64,000 bases of DNA from an uncultured Phycisphaeraceae bacterium. Lineage in GTDB: Bacteria > Planctomycetota > Phycisphaerae > WQYP01. Below are positions 532 to 53,901 of the stretch, in pieces. How positions within the stretch are numbered: the stretch's first letter is position 1; the number at the start of each line of letters is the position of its first letter. Below the pieces are notes generated by a model. The model made no database searches. It saw nothing but the letters and a program-made list of their open reading frames with translations, and was not told the origin of the DNA. The stretch is taken from positions 216,076-280,075 of the forward strand of contig CAZSYN010000002.1 of assembly GCA_964610975.1 (NCBI GenBank). Direction: 5' to 3'. The position numbers and the translations under genes were made by a program.

Positions 532-1879
532 GGTGAATCTCCAGCTCGTCCTGGCTTTTTTCAGACAGACACATGGCGATCCCCAGCATGATCCAGTATG
601 CGGCATTATGCATGGGGCGCTCAAAAAAAAGTACAAAAAAGGCATATCCGGACATGGCAAAGAGCATGGCGCCTGCGGCCAGGCGATCCGGATCAACACG
701 ATGGCGCGCATGTTGCTCCCGCATTAATCGCTTGTGCAGATGCCAGGCAATCACACCATGCAGAAAAAGCAAAAGCAGCAGTCCGACAATGCCCATGCGT
801 GCCAGAACCATCAAATAGGTGTTGTGCGGCATGCCCTGATTAAATCCCGATCCTTCGGCCTCTGATGGCGGCACAAGCATCGGATCAACAATCGGTGTTA
901 CAAATCCCACGCCAAAAATGGGAGACCCCTGCCAGATCATCAGCGTAGAGGCCCATCGCAAAAGCCGCCATGACGCATTGGCGTCATCACCAGGCGCCAG
1001 GGCGCTGACGAGAGCCATGCGCAGCTTGGCAAACTGATCGCCCATCGGCAGAAAATCCCCCGCATCCGAAAGTAACAAAACCCCGACAAACGCAACTAAC
1101 ACAAAAACCAGCACCATCATTCGCAGGGAGCGGCGATATACAAATAGCATATACATGCATGCAAGTGATATTCCGACAAATCCTGCGCGCGTTTGCCCAA
1201 GCGCCAGCGCGGGAAGGCACAATACGATAAAAAATAAATGGACCATGCGCCGGCGCGCCGAGGCAATCGCAAGCGCCGTCAGGCCAACGAGCGTAAAGGC
1301 CAGCATCCCGCCGACGTCGCCGCCGCCGACACCGGAAATAGACCCGGCGGATGTGGTGCGCAGCGAAGTGGCGTAAAGGCCGGTAAACCCGCCGCCGGCA
1401 TAATCAATCAACAGCATGGCCGCGAGTATAACTCCGCTGTAGATCATCAATCGCAAAAGAAAAGCAGCATGACGCGGCGCGCCCAGAGCCTTAACGGTAA
1501 GCGGCAAAAAAAGGATATATGCAAAAATGGCGCAGTCATGAGCGGCCGACAGCAGTGACTGCCCGGCGGAAAGGCCAAAACGCATCAGAGCCATGATCAG
1601 GATGCACACAATCAGCACAGTGACCAGCCGTCCCGCCGGATGATGACAGGCCCAATTGAATGGCCAATGCAAAGAACGCACGGAAGTAAGAACCAGAAGC
1701 AGGCCTAAAATCAGATCCGTTAAAAAAAGAGGAACCCCGCCGACGGGTATATTCAGCTTGGCCGCCTCAATATGCCCGATACGAGTCAGCAGTAAATAGG
1801 CGATCAACAGGATACAGCGAAAGCCCACTTGCGGAATGCGTATATCAAGCAATGCGGGATCAAGTGTTGTGCGAGTCAT
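524..1879 (-). CDS. O-antigen ligase / polymerase family membrane protein (Wzy_C-like)
   Basis: 451 aa, about 10-12 hydrophobic helices. Has a periplasmic-loop motif ...GFNQGMPHNTYLMVLARMGIVGLLLL, the H-N-x-Y-L signature of the Wzy_C / WaaL family. ATG overlaps the stop of the upstream pyruvyl transferase. Confidence 0.6.
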   Translation of the reverse strand: MTRTTLDPALLDIRIPQVGFRCILLIAYLLLTRIGHIEAAKLNIPVGGVPLFLTDLILGLLLVLTSVRSLHWPFNWACHHPAGRLVTVLIVCILIMALMRFGLSAGQSLLSAAHDCAIFAYILFLPLTVKALGAPRHAAFLLRLMIYSGVILAAMLLIDYAGGGFTGLYATSLRTTSAGSISGVGGGDVGGMLAFTLVGLTALAIASARRRMVHLFFIVLCLPALALGQTRAGFVGISLACMYMLFVYRRSLRMMVLVFVLVAFVGVLLLSDAGDFLPMGDQFAKLRMALVSALAPGDDANASWRLLRWASTLMIWQGSPIFGVGFVTPIVDPMLVPPSEAEGSGFNQGMPHNTYLMVLARMGIVGLLLLLFLHGVIAWHLHKRLMREQHARHRVDPDRLAAGAMLFAMSGYAFFVLFFERPMHNAAYWIMLGIAMCLSEKSQDELEIHHD

Positions 1880-3090: not shown

Positions 3091-4367
3091 GCCGCTTGCT
3101 CCAGTATGGGCCGCTGGCTTGCCGCGCGTGCCCGGCGCGCGGCAAGCCAATGCGCCAGAATGAGTGAGAGCGCGCTCTCACACATCATGCCAAACATGGC
3201 CCCGGTCACCCCCCACCATCTGACAAGCGGCACAATGCCGGCCAGCAGCAGAAGTGTTCCGGAAAGCCGGGAAATCAGAACGCCTTCCGGATAGCCTGTC
3301 ATTCCGAGTTGAACAACCAGCAGCGAATTTAATCCGTTCACCAGCGCCAGAAAGCAGTAACCTGCCGCCAGCGGCGCCAGGAAATCAAAATGTTTTTGCA
3401 GGATCACATCCGAAAATGGCCCCGCGGCCAGGCAGGCCGGCACGCCATAACCAAGAGTCAGCAGAATTAAAATGATATACCAGCGCGAGATAAAAACCCC
3501 CATGCCGGATACACCATTTTGACGCCATGCGCGCGATACGCCCGGAATGGTAAATGACGTAATCCCGGCCACCACAACCTGAAGCGGCGCAATGACCTGC
3601 CGCGCAGCTTCAACTCCGGCCAGCGCCGACATTCCGGCGATAGAGCCTGTTGCCATCAGCACGATGCGCCGCGATACAATAATCATGATATTTGAGGGCG
3701 CATACATGCGGGCCACCGGCAGATAGCCGCGCATGACGTCACGCACCTTGAGTGCGGATGCTGGCAAGCGGCGGAGTTTTATAGCCGAAAAAAAATATCC
3801 CGCCGCCGCGCCGACGGATAACGCAACAAGGCCGGCGTAAAGCGCGGAGTATTTTACCATATGACACAGGATCAGCGCGGCCACGGATATTGCGGCATAA
3901 CCAATATCCGCAAGCAACACAGACCTGCCGTCATTGATGCAAAATAAGATGCGGCGATTTATCTCGTGCAGAGTTGTCATCAACATGACCGGCGATATCA
4001 GCAAGGCCGCCATCACATTGGGGCTGAACTTCCCTTCTGCCCACCACATCACACAGGCGCACAATAACGCCGCGACGGCAAGAATCACTCCGTATAGCGC
4101 AGAAAGGATGCGTGTCGGCCGAAATATTTCCGGCTCATGCCTCATGCTCATCGGCAGCCAGATTGCGCCGCGATGAAGATCCGCCGCCCCAAGTACGATC
4201 AACAACAAAAATGCATATAAACCAAGATCCAGCTTGCTTGCGTATCTGCCGACATAAAGTCCCATGATAAAATTTGCGCCTGAATACACAATCTGATCGG
4301 CCATCGCCACAACGGCCGAATGCCGCCAGAGCGAGACGTATTTTGAAATTAAACGTTCAGGTGTCAT
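3087..4367 (-). CDS. wzx: oligosaccharide flippase (Wzx / MOP superfamily polysaccharide biosynthesis protein)
   Basis: 426 aa, about 12 TM helices. Sits among Wzy, glycosyltransferase and Wzc genes; composition is typical of Wzx/RfbX flippases. Confidence 0.55.
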   Translation of the reverse strand: MTPERLISKYVSLWRHSAVVAMADQIVYSGANFIMGLYVGRYASKLDLGLYAFLLLIVLGAADLHRGAIWLPMSMRHEPEIFRPTRILSALYGVILAVAALLCACVMWWAEGKFSPNVMAALLISPVMLMTTLHEINRRILFCINDGRSVLLADIGYAAISVAALILCHMVKYSALYAGLVALSVGAAAGYFFSAIKLRRLPASALKVRDVMRGYLPVARMYAPSNIMIIVSRRIVLMATGSIAGMSALAGVEAARQVIAPLQVVVAGITSFTIPGVSRAWRQNGVSGMGVFISRWYIILILLTLGYGVPACLAAGPFSDVILQKHFDFLAPLAAGYCFLALVNGLNSLLVVQLGMTGYPEGVLISRLSGTLLLLAGIVPLVRWWGVTGAMFGMMCESALSLILAHWLAARRARAASQRPILEQAA

Positions 4368-4382
4368 ACGTAATCACTTCCG

Positions 4383-5582
4383 TTATGCCGATTGATACGT
4401 CCATTTAGCATGGCGCGGCCGTGATGACTTGAGCTGCGCCAGCGCATGCAGCAACTGGTTTTTCACCATCTGCGAAGTCAGCAACTGCATGCAGATCGGA
4501 GCGCGATGTATGCAGCGATCAAAACACGGCCGGCACGGCATCGGCTCAACCATCACCACGGAATCACATTTTCCGCTGGGGCCAAACAATCGTGGGCATG
4601 CCGGTCCGTAAATGCCGACAACCCGGCTGCCGCATGCCGATGCCAGATGCAGAACGCCGCCATCAACGGCGAGGGTAATGTCCACCGCGTGCAGCAAACC
4701 TTTAAGGTCACTCAGTTTCGTCTGCCAGGGTATCAGCAGAATATGTTTGGGCACTCTTACCGTGGGGAGTTTTTCATGAGGCTCAAGAACCCATATGACC
4801 GCACCGATATATTCCGGCAGATCCTCAAGCACCTGCTCAAACTGACTCACGGGCCACTTGCGAATCGGATTCCCCGCGCCATTGCTGACGGCCAGTATCA
4901 ACCCATTGCGGTATCCCTGTTTTCGCAATACACCAAGCGCACGGCAGGTGCTGTGCATATCGGCGTTCATCACGGGAAGATCATCAGTTTTTTGGCCCGT
5001 TATTTTCTCTGCGGCGGCAACCGCGTCATGCCGCGTATGCCAGGGTTCTGATAAATGCGGCGGCCGGCCCAAATTCAAATCAAGCCAATATTTTCCGCCG
5101 GAAGCGCCGTAGGCCGCTTTAGCCCGCGCGGATAACAACGCCAACTGCATCAATTCGCGCGGATCATGTCTGATGCTGATGAGCAAATCCCACGAGTGCG
5201 TCCTGAGAGCGCGAAGCTGCTGTAAAAATACGCGCCATTCTTTTTTCCAGAAACGATATTTTCCTGTGTACTGTGTCCACGGCGGAACCAGCACGTGAAC
5301 TTGGTCGCACAATCCGGTATCAACAAACAGGTCATTCAGCCACGGTTTACCGATGAGTTCAATGGACGCTTTCGGCCAGCGTTTTCGCAAGCCTGCCAAA
5401 AGCGGCTGCGCCAATATCGCATCACCGATGCCCCACTGCTGAATCACGCCGATTTTCGGAGACAAATGGCCCGAAGACTCAAATGATTTCCACGCGCCGT
5501 GAGGTCTTTTCCCAAACCATGAGATCACATCGGCAATCTTGGTCATCATATGAATTTTGTCATCACGCCGAGACATGGCCAT
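4383..5582 (-). CDS. glycosyltransferase family 9 (heptosyltransferase-like)
   Basis: Has GIGDAILAQPLL near the N-terminus and LAVDGGVLHLASACGSRVVGIYGP near the C-terminus (GT9 RfaF/RfaC-type motifs). Probable start is MAMSRRDDK at 5582, which overlaps the CpsB stop as TGATG. Carries a Cys-rich C-terminal tail. Confidence 0.6.
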   Translation of the reverse strand: MAMSRRDDKIHMMTKIADVISWFGKRPHGAWKSFESSGHLSPKIGVIQQWGIGDAILAQPLLAGLRKRWPKASIELIGKPWLNDLFVDTGLCDQVHVLVPPWTQYTGKYRFWKKEWRVFLQQLRALRTHSWDLLISIRHDPRELMQLALLSARAKAAYGASGGKYWLDLNLGRPPHLSEPWHTRHDAVAAAEKITGQKTDDLPVMNADMHSTCRALGVLRKQGYRNGLILAVSNGAGNPIRKWPVSQFEQVLEDLPEYIGAVIWVLEPHEKLPTVRVPKHILLIPWQTKLSDLKGLLHAVDITLAVDGGVLHLASACGSRVVGIYGPACPRLFGPSGKCDSVVMVEPMPCRPCFDRCIHRAPICMQLLTSQMVKNQLLHALAQLKSSRPRHAKWTYQSA

Positions 5583-16634: not shown

Positions 16635-16784
16635 GACATACCTCTACTGCAACGAACACAAAACAATCATAGCCAAACCATAGTGCACTATAACCTCAAC
16701 TGAGGCATGACAAAATAAAACATACGCAAAAAACAGTTTCGCATATGAAATAAGCGGGGATTGTTCAGGTATGAGAAACAAGCG

Positions 16785-16959
16785 GCCTAAGAGCGTGTAT
16801 TAAAAGTAGCGGGAAGCCAAATGCGCAGGCTGCCGGCCGATCAACGAGGACGCAGGACCGAGTGATATTCACCACTATCAGCGAGCGTCCGAGGACGAAG
16901 TTGAGGGGCTGGCAGACCAGCAGATGGCCCCGATTACTTTTAATACACGCTCTCAGCGC
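16785..16959. mobile_element. MITE-like element, ~175 bp, with ~24-bp terminal inverted repeats (copy A)
   Basis: Left end is cctaagagcgtgtattaaaagtagcggg. Right end is ccgattacttttaatacacgctctcagcg, whose reverse complement matches the left end at about 21 of 22 positions in the core. A second, shorter inverted copy lies at 20791-20882. No coding capacity. Confidence 0.5.
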
Positions 16960-16961
16960 GA

Positions 16962-17438
16962 TCAGGATTGGCCTGTCAGCTCATTGCTATTGCTGAAAAG
17001 TTGCTTCTCAAACTCGGCGATTTTTTCAAGACGGCGCTGATGGCGGCCATTTTCAAAGGGAGTAAGCAACCACGCATCAACGATGCGGCGGATGAGTTCA
17101 TCACCCAAAAGATCGGCCGCGAAACAAAGGATGTTGGCGTTGTTGTGGCGGCGGCTGATTTCGGCGGTGAGCTCATCATGGCAGATGGCCGCGCGAATGC
17201 CGGGGAGTTTGTTTGCGACGATTGACATGCCGATGCCGGAACCGTCAATGAGAATACCGCGATCGCACTGGCCGGCGGCGACAGCCTTAGCGGCCGGGAC
17301 GGCAAAGTCAGGATAATCACAGGGGCGAGAATTATCCGTGCCAAAATCAACGATTTCGTGCCCGCGATCAATGATCTGGGCAACAATGCGTTGCTTGATG
17401 GAAAAACCACGATGATCACAGGCGATGGCGATTTTCAT
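16962..17438 (-). CDS. rpiB: ribose-5-phosphate isomerase B
   Basis: MKIAIACDHRGFSIKQ...ILIDGSGIGMSIVANK...CHDELTAEISRRHNNANILCF is the RpiB/LacAB family. Confidence 0.85.
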   Translation of the reverse strand: MKIAIACDHRGFSIKQRIVAQIIDRGHEIVDFGTDNSRPCDYPDFAVPAAKAVAAGQCDRGILIDGSGIGMSIVANKLPGIRAAICHDELTAEISRRHNNANILCFAADLLGDELIRRIVDAWLLTPFENGRHQRRLEKIAEFEKQLFSNSNELTGQS

Positions 17439-19982: not shown

Positions 19983-20633
19983 TTAATCCTCAAAGTGCCG
20001 CTTGATTTTTTCAATCGTCGCTTTCGTCACTGAATCAATGCTGCCTGTGGCGTCTACTGTTTTCAGGCAACCAAGCTTTTTATAGTAGGCCAGGATCGGG
20101 TCCATTGTTTCTTTGTAAGTAGAAAGCCGCTGCTGAACCACTTCAGGTTTGTCGTCGGCGCGAATAATCAGCGCCGTACCGTCGTGATCACACTTGCCGG
20201 CAACCTTTGGCGGAAGCGATTCTATGTGATATACCGCCTGGCAGGTCGGGCAAATGCGCCGGCCTGAGAATCGGCGGGCAAGCGCCTCAAGAGGCACGTC
20301 AAAATTGAGAACAAGATTGAGCGGACGATCAAGCTCAAAAAGCATGCGATTTAGCGCTTGAGCTTGCACCAATGTACGGGGGAAACCATCAAGAACAAAG
20401 CCTTTTTCGATCTTCTGAATGTGCTCACGCATCAAAGAGAGCGTCAGCTCATCCGGAACAAGCTGGCCGGCGTCCATGTACTGCTTGATTTTGATACCGG
20501 CCGGTGTGCCTGCGGCTTTTTCGGCTCGCAGAATATCACCGCTTGACATGTGCTTGAGCCCGAATTCTTCACAAATCCGAGCCGCCTGTGTTCCCTTCCC
20601 CGCCCCTGGAGCACCCAGTAGCGCAATCCTCAT
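19983..20633 (-). CDS. adk: adenylate kinase
   Basis: MRIALLGAPGAGKGTQA P-loop. Zinc lid RRICPTCQAVYH...KCDHDG. Confidence 0.9.
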   Translation of the reverse strand: MRIALLGAPGAGKGTQAARICEEFGLKHMSSGDILRAEKAAGTPAGIKIKQYMDAGQLVPDELTLSLMREHIQKIEKGFVLDGFPRTLVQAQALNRMLFELDRPLNLVLNFDVPLEALARRFSGRRICPTCQAVYHIESLPPKVAGKCDHDGTALIIRADDKPEVVQQRLSTYKETMDPILAYYKKLGCLKTVDATGSIDSVTKATIEKIKRHFED

Positions 20634-20790
20634 TTTCTGATACCTCGGGCATCAGGCGTCAACATCTTGCGAACACCTTTTGCCGGACAAACGCACTCAT
20701 GAATGAGAGAATATCTGACGACGAGAGAATAAGGAGGCCATCGCACGCGCGCACTCTCTCATTCTTGATTCTCTCATCCGCTCGTTGGCG

Positions 20791-20882
20791 TCTATAGAGC
20801 GTTCATCAAAAGTATTCGGGGCCATCTGCTGGTCTGCCAGCCGATCTGGCTTCCCGCTACCTTTAATACACGCTCTTAGGCC
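20791..20882. mobile_element. MITE-like element, short (~90 bp) internally deleted copy B, inverted relative to copy A
   Basis: The reverse complement of 20848-20882 is cctaagagcgtgtattaaaggtagcgggaagcc, 32 of 33 identical to the copy A left end. The internal ggctggcagaccagcagatggcccc block is shared with copy A. It sits between the secY stop and the adk start, and its terminal repeat contains the secY stop codon. Confidence 0.5.
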
Positions 20883-22363
20883 GCGGGCTGTGATCCGCGA
20901 ACCGGGCCGCCTTTGGTCTTTTTGAGTTTGGCTCCGTTACCGCCATCTTCAAGAAAACCACCGTAGTTACGCATCACAAGGTTTGCTTCAATACGGTTAA
21001 CAAGATCAAGCATCACGCTGATCACAATCAGCAGGCCCGTACCGCCCAAAAAGCTGCTGACAGTGAAGCTGACATCAAAAAACTTATAAACGACAGACGG
21101 GATCACGGCGATCACGCACAAGAATGCCGCGCCGACATACGTCATGCGGTTCATCACATTCTCAAGATACTCGGCCGTGCGCGGACCGGGACGCAAACCC
21201 GGAATAAAGCTGCCGTAATCACGAAGCTGATTGGCCATTTCCTTCGGCTGAAACTGAACGGTATTCCAGAAATAGCTGAAGAAGAAAATCATGCCGATAT
21301 ACATAAATTCGTAAAGGAACTCGCCGATATCAAAACCGCGGCCCAGGGAGATCGTAAACGTGTTGGGCCAGCGATCGACAATCATGCGGATACCCGCATG
21401 CGGGAAGAGCATCAGCGAACTGGCGAAAATGATCGGCATGACGCCAGCGTGGTTGACGCGCAGAGGCAGGTACTGCTTCTGGCCGCCGTAAACCTTGCGG
21501 CCACGCAGATGCTTGGCCTGCTGAATCGGAATGCGGCGCTGAGCCTGCGTAATCAGGATTGAGCCGGCCACGACAAACACAAAGCAGGCTGCCAACACCA
21601 GGACCACAAGCAGACCATACTTCGGCTGGCCGGAGTTCATCATGCGGCCGACATTCTGAAATGCCTCAACAAGATTGCCGCCGAGATGCCAGTCTTTGAA
21701 GAGAATATTAAAGAAATTGGTAAACGCGGATTGAGAGTAAACCTCATGGATTGCGTTGGGCAGGCGGCTGACGATACCGGCCGTGATGATCAGCGATACG
21801 CCGTTGCCGATGCCGTACTGGTCAATCTGCTCGCCAAGCCACATCAGGAACATACTGCCGGCAGTAAGAACCGTCAGGCCCATGACCCAGAACAAAAGCG
21901 GATGATCTTCGCTCATGAACGGATAAAGCAACTCATTGCGGCTTGAGGCCAGGGTCCACATCCACCATCCGCCCTGAATCAGGCAGATCAGCACGGTAAG
22001 GTAACGCGTCCACTCGTTGATTTTGCGAATGCCCGGCTCGCCTTCCTTTTTGAGTTTTTCAAGGCTCGGCACAACCGTGGCCAAAAGCTGCAAGATAATG
22101 GATGCGGAAATGTACGGCATAATGCCCAGGCCGAAAATACGCGACTGGGACAAATCACCGCCGGAGAAGACCGACATGTAATTGGCCAACGCGCCGAAGG
22201 CTGTGTTGGCGCTTTCCTGCGCCTGACGCAGAACGTTTTCGGCATTGACGCCAGGCAAGGGCAAGGCGTAACCGATGCGATACACCACCAGCATGCCGAG
22301 AGTAAAGAGCAGTTTGTTACGCAGTTCCGGAATACGAAACGTGTTCGTGAGCGTTTTAATCAC
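20876..22363 (-). CDS. secY: preprotein translocase subunit SecY
   Basis: MIKTLTNTFRIPELRNKLLFTLGMLVVYRIGYALPLPGVN...; 10 TM helices. 495 aa with a basic C-terminal tail. Confidence 0.9.
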   Translation of the reverse strand: MIKTLTNTFRIPELRNKLLFTLGMLVVYRIGYALPLPGVNAENVLRQAQESANTAFGALANYMSVFSGGDLSQSRIFGLGIMPYISASIILQLLATVVPSLEKLKKEGEPGIRKINEWTRYLTVLICLIQGGWWMWTLASSRNELLYPFMSEDHPLLFWVMGLTVLTAGSMFLMWLGEQIDQYGIGNGVSLIITAGIVSRLPNAIHEVYSQSAFTNFFNILFKDWHLGGNLVEAFQNVGRMMNSGQPKYGLLVVLVLAACFVFVVAGSILITQAQRRIPIQQAKHLRGRKVYGGQKQYLPLRVNHAGVMPIIFASSLMLFPHAGIRMIVDRWPNTFTISLGRGFDIGEFLYEFMYIGMIFFFSYFWNTVQFQPKEMANQLRDYGSFIPGLRPGPRTAEYLENVMNRMTYVGAAFLCVIAVIPSVVYKFFDVSFTVSSFLGGTGLLIVISVMLDLVNRIEANLVMRNYGGFLEDGGNGAKLKKTKGGPVRGSQPAA

Positions 22364-22600
22364 GCAAGATCCCCGTAAATGGCGTTCTCAGACCCGTTGA
22401 CAATCACCTCATGATTCGCCTGCTCATGGCACTGGCCGCAACGCGGCTGCCGCATACAGGAAAACGATTCATACCGGCGATACGATTTATGCATCATCCG
22501 CACGTATCCGACTTTGAGACAAGCGTGCGGCAGACATTCTATATTATCCGATTTACGTTGCTTAACCAAGCAACAACGGCCAGTGCGATCCTGAATTGCA

Positions 22601-22655
22601 GGATAAAAACAAGCTATAAAGCGCAAAACCCTCGGCGAAGGCCGAGGGTTTTGTG
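22601..22655 (-). terminator. hairpin + U-rich tract downstream of rplO (putative intrinsic terminator / attenuator before secY)
   Basis: aaaaccctcggc-gaag-gccgagggtttt is a 12-bp stem. On the minus strand it is followed by gcgctttatagcttgtttttatcc. Confidence 0.45.
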
Positions 22656-22704
22656 TATTTCAACATGAGCGGACAGAAGCCCGTCGGCTTGCCGGCATCC
22701 GTGA

Positions 22705-33319: not shown

Positions 33320-33845
33320 GGCATTCCTCGCTCCACGTCATACCTCATCTGAACCCGTTTCCCCGGCGAAGGGGTGTCAGGTTCACCGCGATATCCCGTC
33401 TGGCCGATTTCGGCAGCTCACAAAGCGGCCGACACTTACCAGATTCTCGATCCGGGACCCGTAATTGGCGATTACCTTTCGGAGATCGTACTGAGCGGTG
33501 GTGCCGCAAGTCGCATGCTGGCATAAAGCCAATCAGGACTTATTTCAGACGATCCTCGCCGTTCTTGGCCCGGCCGGGATCACTCAGGTTGGGCTTACGT
33601 GGAAAACATTCGTTTTCATTTATGCCCTGCGGCTTGCGCCGCCCTTGCCGACTAAGTTAAAAGCCTATGAATAAGCCTTCAATCAGGGGCAAGACGGAGA
33701 AGTGTAACAGAACCTGCCTGACACGTCAAGCGAAAGTGCAGTTACCCCAAGTTTTACGCGTTTTGGGATTATGGGACGAAGGAATTGCGGCTAAAATGAA
33801 GGCTTATTTGATTGCATATGACTATCAGAAGTCTGTGTTGCCTAT

Positions 33846-33948
33846 TTGTGGCGTGGCTGACTTTTTTCATTCTCTTTTCTCCGCGGCTCTGCGGCTCCGC
33901 GTGAGATCCTGCTCTTTTTCTTTTTCACGCGGAGGCGCGGAGACGCGG
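33846..33948 (+). repeat. ~100-nt direct repeat, copy 1, containing a long imperfect hairpin
   Basis: ttgtggcgtggctgacttttttcattctcttttctccgcggctctgcggctccgcgtgagatcctgctctttttctttttcacgcggag... is near-identical to 35125-35219. Left arm attctcttttctccgcggctctgcggctccgcgtg pairs with right arm cacgcggaggcgcggagacgcggaaaaaagagaat, about 29 of 35 bp. Confidence 0.7.
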
Positions 33949-34972: not shown

Positions 34973-35124
34973 AGAATAATCCTTACATGAGAATGCATGA
35001 ATCTTAACACCATGCCAATGGTCTGCAAGCGGTATGACATGGATATTATGATATTCAAAGACTTCATCCATATTCAAGGCGTCTCAACAAAGCGGAAATT
35101 TTGTCAGGAGTCGGCATTACTTAG

Positions 35125-35219
35125 TTGTGGCGTGGCTGACTTTTTTCATTCTCTTTTCTCCGCGGCTCTGCGGCTCCGCGTGAGATCCTGCTCTTTTTCT
35201 TTTTCACGCGGAGACGCGG
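35125..35219 (+). repeat. ~95-nt direct repeat, copy 2 (8-nt shorter, hairpin right arm truncated)
   Basis: Identical to copy 1 over about 85 nt, then lacks one gcgcggag unit. Confidence 0.7.
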
Positions 35220-35530
35220 AGGGGAAATCATTACGAGTTCATAGCCTGGGGTGCGCTCACTGCCGGTCGCGCTACTCCTGGCTACTTTATGCCAACTCTT
35301 CACGCTGATCGGACTGATCATTTATCTATCAACCTGAGTTTCGGATAAGGATCAAAAAAATGTGTGCCCCCAAGCCCCGGGGTTTTAGTGCAAGTGCCAA
35401 AAAGAATTAACGGCTGACAGATTTACAAAGCTGCCCCGCGATGGCGTGGCGGCAGATCACGCGCTAAAACATTTTGACACATACTGGCTCTGTTGAAAAG
35501 ATTCAGCAAGCCCCATCCTTTTAGAGGATC

Positions 35531-35627
35531 GGGCACAAACAGCTATCCAGAAACGATTACATCCTTTGGGTGTTACTCGTTTTCTTTCACAGTTTGTGCC
35601 CCGCGCCATGAAGGCGACGGGGCTTGG
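35531..35627 (+). ncRNA. candidate structured RNA / repeat motif, copy 1 (gggcacaaac...gtttgtgcccc-stem-AUGAA-loop-ggggcttg)
   Basis: A 35-nt core gtttgtgccccgcgccatgaaggcgacggggcttg, with a distal complementary arm gggcacaaacag 60 nt upstream. A second copy at 53470-53610 keeps the same stem through three compensatory base-pair changes. Strand and function are unknown. Confidence 0.3.
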
Positions 35628-53469: not shown

Positions 53470-53610
53470 GGGCACAACAGATGTGCGAGCGATCAATGTC
53501 TGTTGAACGCTTAATCATGTGCGAACGAATTACCCCCGATTCGTTCCAGTCATGAGCAATTGCCAACGATGATGAGTTTGTGCCCCATCCCATGAAGGGA
53601 ATGGGGCTTG
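53470..53610 (+). ncRNA. candidate structured RNA / repeat motif, copy 2
   Basis: Core gtttgtgccccatcccatgaagggaatggggcttg. The stem ccccatccc/gggaatgggg versus copy 1 ccccgcgcc/ggcgacgggg keeps pairing and a bulged A through compensatory changes. A distal arm gggcacaac lies ~100 nt upstream. A perfect 8-bp hairpin (gaacgaat...attcgttc) sits in between. Confidence 0.3.
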
Positions 53611-53901
53611 CTCAGACTCATGACCAGAATGGCCGGCAGGTCTTATATTATCATCACAGAATGAGTGGCATTGCGGATGAGATGAGCCAAAGAAAAAGCG
53701 GCCAAAATATTGCTCAATTCAGCCATTTTTGGTTGGCATTATCTCAGAAACAGTGTAAATAATACTTGTAATTTCTGCGAGCAACTCGTTTAACAACCTG
53801 CCGTCAATGTATGTAGTGGGTATCAGGGGAGAAGGCCAAAAGAAGGACTGAGCGCGACCAACAAAGCCGGCGCAGGTACTCTTTTGGTAATTGAGTGGGA
53901 T

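Follow-up and report, generated by a model that had tools for sequence, protein, structure and literature searches.

A short inverted-repeat element lies between secY and adk in the DNA analyzed here, and one of its ends meets the secY stop codon. Such an arrangement raises the question of whether the element rewrote the gene that it adjoins. The first-pass annotation, which was made from the letters of the 64,000-nucleotide stretch alone (the window), proposed that a MITE had been inserted at this junction, that its terminal repeat supplied the secY TAA, and that the SecY C-terminus may have been rewritten as a consequence. We reexamined the element, its target site and the corresponding junctions of related genomes. 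The features to which we refer are listed in Table 1.

Table 1. Features of the secY-adk locus, of the second copy of the element and of the corresponding junctions in related genomes
Sequence	Feature	Position	Strand	Description
Window	MITE copy B, short form	20797..20875		79-bp core GAGCG...CGCTC; terminal repeats and hairpin
Window	Copy B TIR, secY side	20858..20875		Reverse complement GAGCGTGTATTAAAGGTA; 17/18 vs. copy A
Window	Copy B TIR, adk side	20797..20814		GAGCGTTCATCAAAAGTA; degenerate, 3 mismatches (15/18)
Window	MITE copy A, long form	16791..16952		162-bp core; perfect 18-nt TIRs; flanks TAA (16788-90) and TCA (16953-55)
Window	secY	20876..22363	minus	495 aa, ending ...KKTKGGPVRGSQPAA
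Window	secY stop TAA	20876-20878 (complement)	minus	Putative target-site triplet (TNA) adjoining copy B
Window	Putative second target triplet of copy B, decayed	20794..20796	minus	Reads TAT, 1 change from TAA; by analogy with TTA/TTA in L010
Window	secY-adk spacer	20634-20875		242 bp
Window	Native conserved noncoding block	20670..20785	minus	GAGAGAAT / ATTCTCTC repeats; not part of the MITE
Window	adk	19983..20633	minus	216 aa
L002 (protein P0002)	secY-adk spacer			197 bp; SecY identity 88%
L002	Block upstream of adk	4680-4790		Same block as in the window
L026 (protein P0241)	secY-adk spacer			186 bp; SecY in the same 90% cluster as P0002
L026	Block upstream of adk	3192-3300		Same block as in the window
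L025 (protein P0121)	secY-adk spacer			271 bp; SecY identity 91% over the last 130 aa
L025	Block upstream of adk	640-750		Same block as in the window

When the junction was compared with the window by BLAST, only one other locus matched. Positions 20847-20884 agree with 16782-16819, read as the reverse complement, in 37 of 38 bases, and 20808-20842 agree with 16907-16941, also inverted, in 34 of 35 (BLAST and repeat search). With up to three mismatches allowed, the window contains four occurrences of the 19-mer AGAGCGTGTATTAAAAGTA, which form two inverted pairs (16790/16953 and 20796/20876), whereas 0.00 occurrences were expected by chance (100 shuffles, ≤3 mismatches). The shared inverted repeat described at first pass was thus confirmed. 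Copy B lacks approximately 83 nt at the hairpin apex of copy A but otherwise corresponds to it, the shared parts being identical at 74 of 79 positions (approximately 94%). Homology between the two copies continues for 6 nt past the flanking triplet (GCGGCC), on the secY side of copy B only. The TIR had seemed to be 19 nt long and to include part of the stop codon because the A/T of the flanking triplets matches. The secY TAA, which had been placed within the terminal repeat, does adjoin the element, but the corrected core ends before it.

The TIRs of copies A and B (18-19 nt) are within the approximately 15- to 30-bp criterion for MITEs, and core lengths of 79 bp (B), 162 bp (A) and 165 bp (the copy in contig L010, described below) are inside the bacterial size range, for which the working definition is about 70-300 bp (PMC3733652). 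All ORFs overlapping copy B are spurious (≤46 aa), and a transposase gene would not fit into 79-165 bp. TIRs, hairpins, size and the lack of coding capacity all fit a MITE-type element, as the first-pass annotation had proposed.

A third copy was found in an unrelated metagenome contig (L010, 2755-2919, 165 bp), with shared ends and a different interior. Its flanks read cgcTTA-GAGCG...CGCTC-TTAgatg, a perfect 3-bp TTA/TTA duplication; the conserved element begins at GAGCG, and the flanks beyond the triplet are not conserved. Because the ends are kept and the interior is unrelated, the conserved part appears to be the transposase-binding ends rather than an RNA structure. L010 was the sole real element among the 15 loci returned when metagenome contigs were scanned with AGAGCGTGTATTAAARGTA. 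The same scan of genome contigs, a collection without the source genome, returned seven single chance matches. Two gapped TIR...TIR scans of viral contigs found none, and approximately 10 kb beyond the left end of the window (L027) contained no further copy. The MITE is therefore dispersed, with two copies in 64 kb and one in a metagenome contig.

Other repeats were also observed in the window. A 118-nt direct repeat, D1, occupies 33825-33942 and 35104-35221 (93% identity between copies, 1279 bp apart). The Logan contig SRR9590235_47064, which carries this secY, starts within copy A (approximately 16924) and ends within D1 (approximately 33875), so short-read assemblies break at these repeats. 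A second short repeat family, with the GC-rich hairpin core AGTTTGTGCCCCGCGCCATGAAGGCGACGGGGCTTG, is present in two copies with 83% identity (35591-35626 and 53575-53610) and was found at 35489-35516 / 53601-53628 as well.

Five of the six triplets flanking the three copies are TNA (TAA and TCA for A, TAA and TAT for B, TTA and TTA for L010). The duplications are imperfect in two of the three copies, with one mismatch each (TAA/TCA in A and TAA/TAT in B), and perfect in L010. A 2-bp TA duplication of the IS630/mariner style fits none of the three. The MITE TIR GAGCGTGTATTAAAAGTAG agrees with GAGCGTGTTTGAAAAGTAG at 17 of 19 positions (short BLAST against plasmids) and at 22 of 28 when subterminal bases are included, and GAGCGTGTTTGAAAAGTAG lies precisely at the left end of an 871-bp IS from Synechocystis; the BLAST alignment is short (26/30, E 0.2) and cyanobacterial. 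A reversed-sequence query, used as a control, gave only weaker matches (E about 9), all in ordinary genes and none at an IS end. The Synechocystis IS (CP101711.1, 87726-88596; also pSYSM NC_005229.1, 38789-39659) has a 261-aa transposase (WLT40329.1; DUF4096+DDE_Tnp_1) that the annotation assigns to the IS5 family; TAA/TAA or TAA/TTA triplets border the copies of this IS. It may be ISY523. On plasmid CP101713.1 of Synechocystis sp. B12 (L036, 1504-3029), two copies of the 871-bp IS were observed head to tail with a single TTA between them.

Because its ends match the terminus of an IS5-family IS that duplicates TNA triplets, the element is, judged from its ends, an IS5-type MITE; assignment to an IS1031-like subgroup would require the cognate transposase. 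No full-length partner IS or transposase homolog was found in the window by tblastn, or in the adjoining approximately 10 kb that was read. Ends in GAG and a TNA target are the signature of IS1031. One ORF and a three-nucleotide target are typical of the IS1031 group of IS5 (PMC2516522), and Harbinger elements likewise have 3-bp target duplications (PMC12730594). The element resembles both the IS1031 group and the related eukaryotic PIF/Harbinger-Tourist MITEs in its putative 3-bp target duplication (PMC2516522 and PMC12730594, respectively, for the duplication in those groups) and in the short, TIR-bounded, nonautonomous derivatives. With the Synechocystis IS it shares GAG directly after the TNA triplet and, putatively, 3-bp TAA/TTA flanking duplications. 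The IS, however, is 871 bp long and has its own DDE transposase, whereas the MITE is 79-165 bp long and noncoding, with an unrelated interior; the hosts also differ (Cyanobacteriota vs. Planctomycetota/Phycisphaerae).

Correia elements duplicate TA and are present in hundreds of copies, and RNase III, IHF and promoter effects have been demonstrated for them. Their TIR sequences are unrelated to those of the window MITE, and their TA duplication contrasts with its TNA triplets. Correia-, ERIC- and RUP-type MITEs are co-transcribed into mRNA hairpins. The window MITE is like them in having long and short forms related by internal deletion and in its intergenic position within transcription units, and it is like Correia/NEMIS (Neisseria) and ERIC/RUP-type MITEs in size, long TIRs and whole-element hairpins (general description in PMC3733652). 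REP/REPIN sequences are also extragenic hairpin palindromes and are often found just 3′ of genes; REPs are 20- to 40-bp units with a GTAG or CGTC tag, RAYT tyrosine transposases and no TSD (PMC3733652). A REP/REPIN reading was rejected: GTAG follows the TIR in only two of the six arms (A-left and B-right), the remaining four having GTAA, GTAT, GTAT and CTCT, and the flanks are TNA triplets.

By its SecY homologs, the organism belongs to Phycisphaerae. The effect on SecY was assessed by comparison with close relatives, of which the protein collection contained only three besides the identical protein (L002, L026 and L025). The window secY ends in AAA GGC GGC CCG GTT CGC GGA TCA CAG CCC GCG GCC TAA, directly followed by GAGCG. 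In L026, from which the element is absent, the gene ends in AAG GGT GGC CCG GTT CGC GGC ACG CAG CCG ACG GCC TGA, followed by tgttg. The two proteins (KGGPVRG-TQPTA-TGA in L026 vs. KGGPVRG-SQPAA-TAA in the window) stop at the identical codon position. Because L026 stops there without the element, the position of the window stop is ancestral, and GCG GCC are native codons. The secY genes of L025 and L002 end in ...CAG TCC GCC GCC TGA (TQSAA) and ...CAG CCG ACA TAA (TQPT), respectively. The comparison with element-free relatives that had been suggested at first pass therefore gave two results: the C-terminus is the same, matching codon for codon to the stop in L026, which refutes rewriting by the insertion, and the spacer differs from that of the window.

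The basic tail of SecY, which had been considered unusual, is common: AK[LI][KR][KR]PKGGPVRG..QPQPAA was found in many of the Phycisphaerae SecY homologs listed, and the short version is present in element-free relatives. Many of the homologs listed continue with an approximately 11-residue (F/Y)D..PKGLPA end, which none of the four clade members (window, L002, L026 and L025) has. Because three of these four are element-free, the loss of this end predates the insertion. The most plausible reading of the secY TAA is that of a native stop, which would have served as the TNA target and then been duplicated, and not that of a codon borne by the element.

The MITE was absent from the secY-adk junction in all three relatives. 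Copy B is thus an insertion, in agreement with the first-pass annotation. The window secY is the outgroup to the other three (79-80% vs. 81-85% nucleotide identity), and only 52% of third codon positions are identical between the window and L002. Copies A and B are approximately 94% identical, so the insertion would be younger than the split from the relatives, which argues for a recent gain in the window lineage. An element footprint in L002, in which GCGGCGAAGAGAC follows the stop, was considered and rejected; the native spacer of L025 has the corresponding TCCG...GGGAGAGC.

The distance of 242 bp between secY and adk was measured again and agrees with the value given at first pass. The accompanying claim that the element had loosened a normally compact operon did not hold, since a conserved noncoding block before adk already makes the spacers of element-free clade members 186-271 bp long. 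Among more distantly related genomes, L033 has 73 bp between the two genes, and in L034 they overlap by 4 bp. Although the MITE contributes 82 bp, approximately 25-35 nt that the three relatives share just after the stop are missing from the window, and the net spacer gain is only approximately 45-56 bp. Because this native spacer sequence is missing, the event may not have been a clean insertion. The length of the L025 spacer is explained by another insert of approximately 85 bp near adk (approximately 770-855), with the hairpin GCCGCGGcaattCCCGCGGC; this insert has no relation to the MITE. Between rplO and secY, too, the spacing is wide (341 bp in the window, 22364-22704; 285 bp in L002, 2848-3132), and loose spacing in the ribosomal-protein/secY cluster is therefore a lineage trait.

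The block upstream of adk (approximately 110 nt, GAUGAGAGAAUCAnGAAUGAGAGAGUGCGCGCGUGCG..CUCCUUAUUCUCUC..AUUCUCUCAUUCAAGAGUGCGUUUGUCCGG) is nearly invariant in the four genomes, although secY third positions are only approximately 52% identical. A conserved ORF was rejected because of a frameshift between the window and L002. The block matched nothing in Rfam, and no stable fold was consistent among the genomes; a 12-bp helix within it does not vary and so offers no sites for a covariation analysis. It was absent from the more distant Phycisphaerae L033 and L034. The block may act on adk as a regulatory site specific to this clade, and it may merit more follow-up than the MITE.

Copy A follows the rpiB stop at a distance of 9 nt and precedes the rpiB terminator. 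On the minus strand, the junction between the rpiB end and copy A (within 16953-17438) reads ...CAA TCC TGA TCG CGC TGA, directly followed by GAGCG; the triplet adjoining copy A is an in-frame TGA, two codons past the actual rpiB stop. RpiB is 158 aa long, compared with 162-176 aa (mostly 168) in the homologs inspected for their tails, and the local alignments do not reach the last residues of the query (approximately 3% of it). A search for the empty site of copy A through RpiB homologs was negative, the closest (86%) having unrelated downstream DNA, in one case leading into an rRNA operon. On the same arm of A and B, GCGGCC lies just outside the triplet (16782-16790 and 20876-20884). The chance that two CTNAG sites in this window share at least five upstream bases is approximately 0.002 per pair, and simple TNA targeting does not predict the sharing of GCGGCC. 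It could reflect chance after selection of the site by the first-pass annotation, a target preference that extends past the triplet, or an atypical origin of A or B.

The alternative in which the repeat of the element brought the stop, together with the preceding Ala-Ala, and truncated or rewrote the SecY C-terminus is hardly credible. Copy A does have the same GCGGCCTAA beside its terminus, and the window SecY is without the (F/Y)D..PKGLPA end of many more distant Phycisphaerae. However, ACG GCC TGA in L026 and GCC GCC TGA in L025 occupy the same codons with the element absent, the missing end is missing from the element-free clade members as well, and L010 delimits a conserved element that starts at GAGCG with variable flanks beyond the triplet. 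The identical 9-nt junction in both copies, with its low expectation per site pair, might also suggest that A or B arose by recombination or template switching through GCGGCCTAA microhomology instead of transposition. We consider this very improbable: GCGGCC is native at secY, and the homology of the two copies breaks off at their other end precisely where the symmetric TIR terminates (CGCTC), as transposase cleavage predicts, which favors transposition. It is also improbable that the ancestral junction carried the element and that the three relatives lost it. With the window secY as the outgroup, one loss is as parsimonious as one gain, and copy B is decayed (apex deleted, one TIR with three mismatches, imperfect duplication). 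Nevertheless, A and B have remained approximately 94% identical although neutral sites are near saturation between the window and the relatives, a loss must restore a clean stop plus spacer, and the AAGAG that follows the stop in L002 resembles the native GAGAGC of L025 and not an element footprint.

Two further readings would leave a transposon origin intact. One is that the MITE or its transposase has an extended target preference (GCGGCC-TNA), a bias toward stop codons at gene 3′ ends, or both. This is unlikely; the stop bias is suggested by copy B on the secY stop and by the TGA in frame with rpiB at copy A, TAA and TGA both being TNA. If true, the element would be a "safe-landing" transposon, restoring any stop into which it inserts. 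The other concerns the hairpin. Copy B is predicted to fold as one hairpin on the secY mRNA strand (dG -44.7 kcal/mol, z -6.5), and copy A to fold end to end (-92 to -95 kcal/mol, z -9 to -11, lowest -10.9). The hairpin of copy B is followed by UAUAGACGCCAACG, without a U-tract, and thus is not an intrinsic (Rho-independent) terminator; a terminator scan found no terminator-like site between secY and adk on the minus strand. Rfam 15 gave no gathering-level match in the window, and a relaxed scan of 20500-21000 gave noise only (E 7.6). By analogy with other bacterial MITEs, any effect of the predicted stem-loop would fall on mRNA processing or stability. The hairpin might accordingly have been co-opted to tune secY vs. 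adk, as an RNase III site, a 3′ stabilizer of secY mRNA or a translational uncoupler. On the mRNA strand, a very stable predicted stem-loop does start at the secY stop, copy A also follows a gene end, between the rpiB stop and terminator, and other bacterial MITEs have been reported to act in this way (PMC3733652). Co-option is nonetheless doubtful, given that the three relatives are without the element and retain a conserved block of their own before adk, that one TIR is decaying, that L010 keeps the termini only, and that Rfam gave no match.

We therefore favor, with a probability of roughly 85%, the explanation that copy B is a nonautonomous, IS5-family-type MITE inserted in a TNA target at the secY stop, with SecY unaltered. 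A full-length IS elsewhere would have supplied the transposase in trans, and the TNA target entered by the element would by coincidence have been the TAA that ends secY (context GCC-TAA-G). After the 3-bp duplication, the upstream TAA would still end SecY and the downstream copy would have decayed to TAT; with one TAA left in place as the stop, SecY would be unaltered. The approximately 83 nt of the hairpin apex would have been lost either before or after the insertion, producing the short form. Once transcribed with secY(-adk), the element is expected to fold into a 79-nt stem-loop beginning at the stop codon. Copy B is probably a near-neutral passenger and an ordinary insertion.

The importance of the finding is modest. 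It adds an IS5-type MITE that had not been described before, from an uncultured lineage of Phycisphaerae, and the insertion places a strong predicted hairpin in the secY-adk transcript. It also suggests that a TNA-duplicating transposon can hit the stop codon of an essential gene and leave the protein unchanged, and it advises caution, since an element that overlaps a stop codon need not have rewritten the gene.
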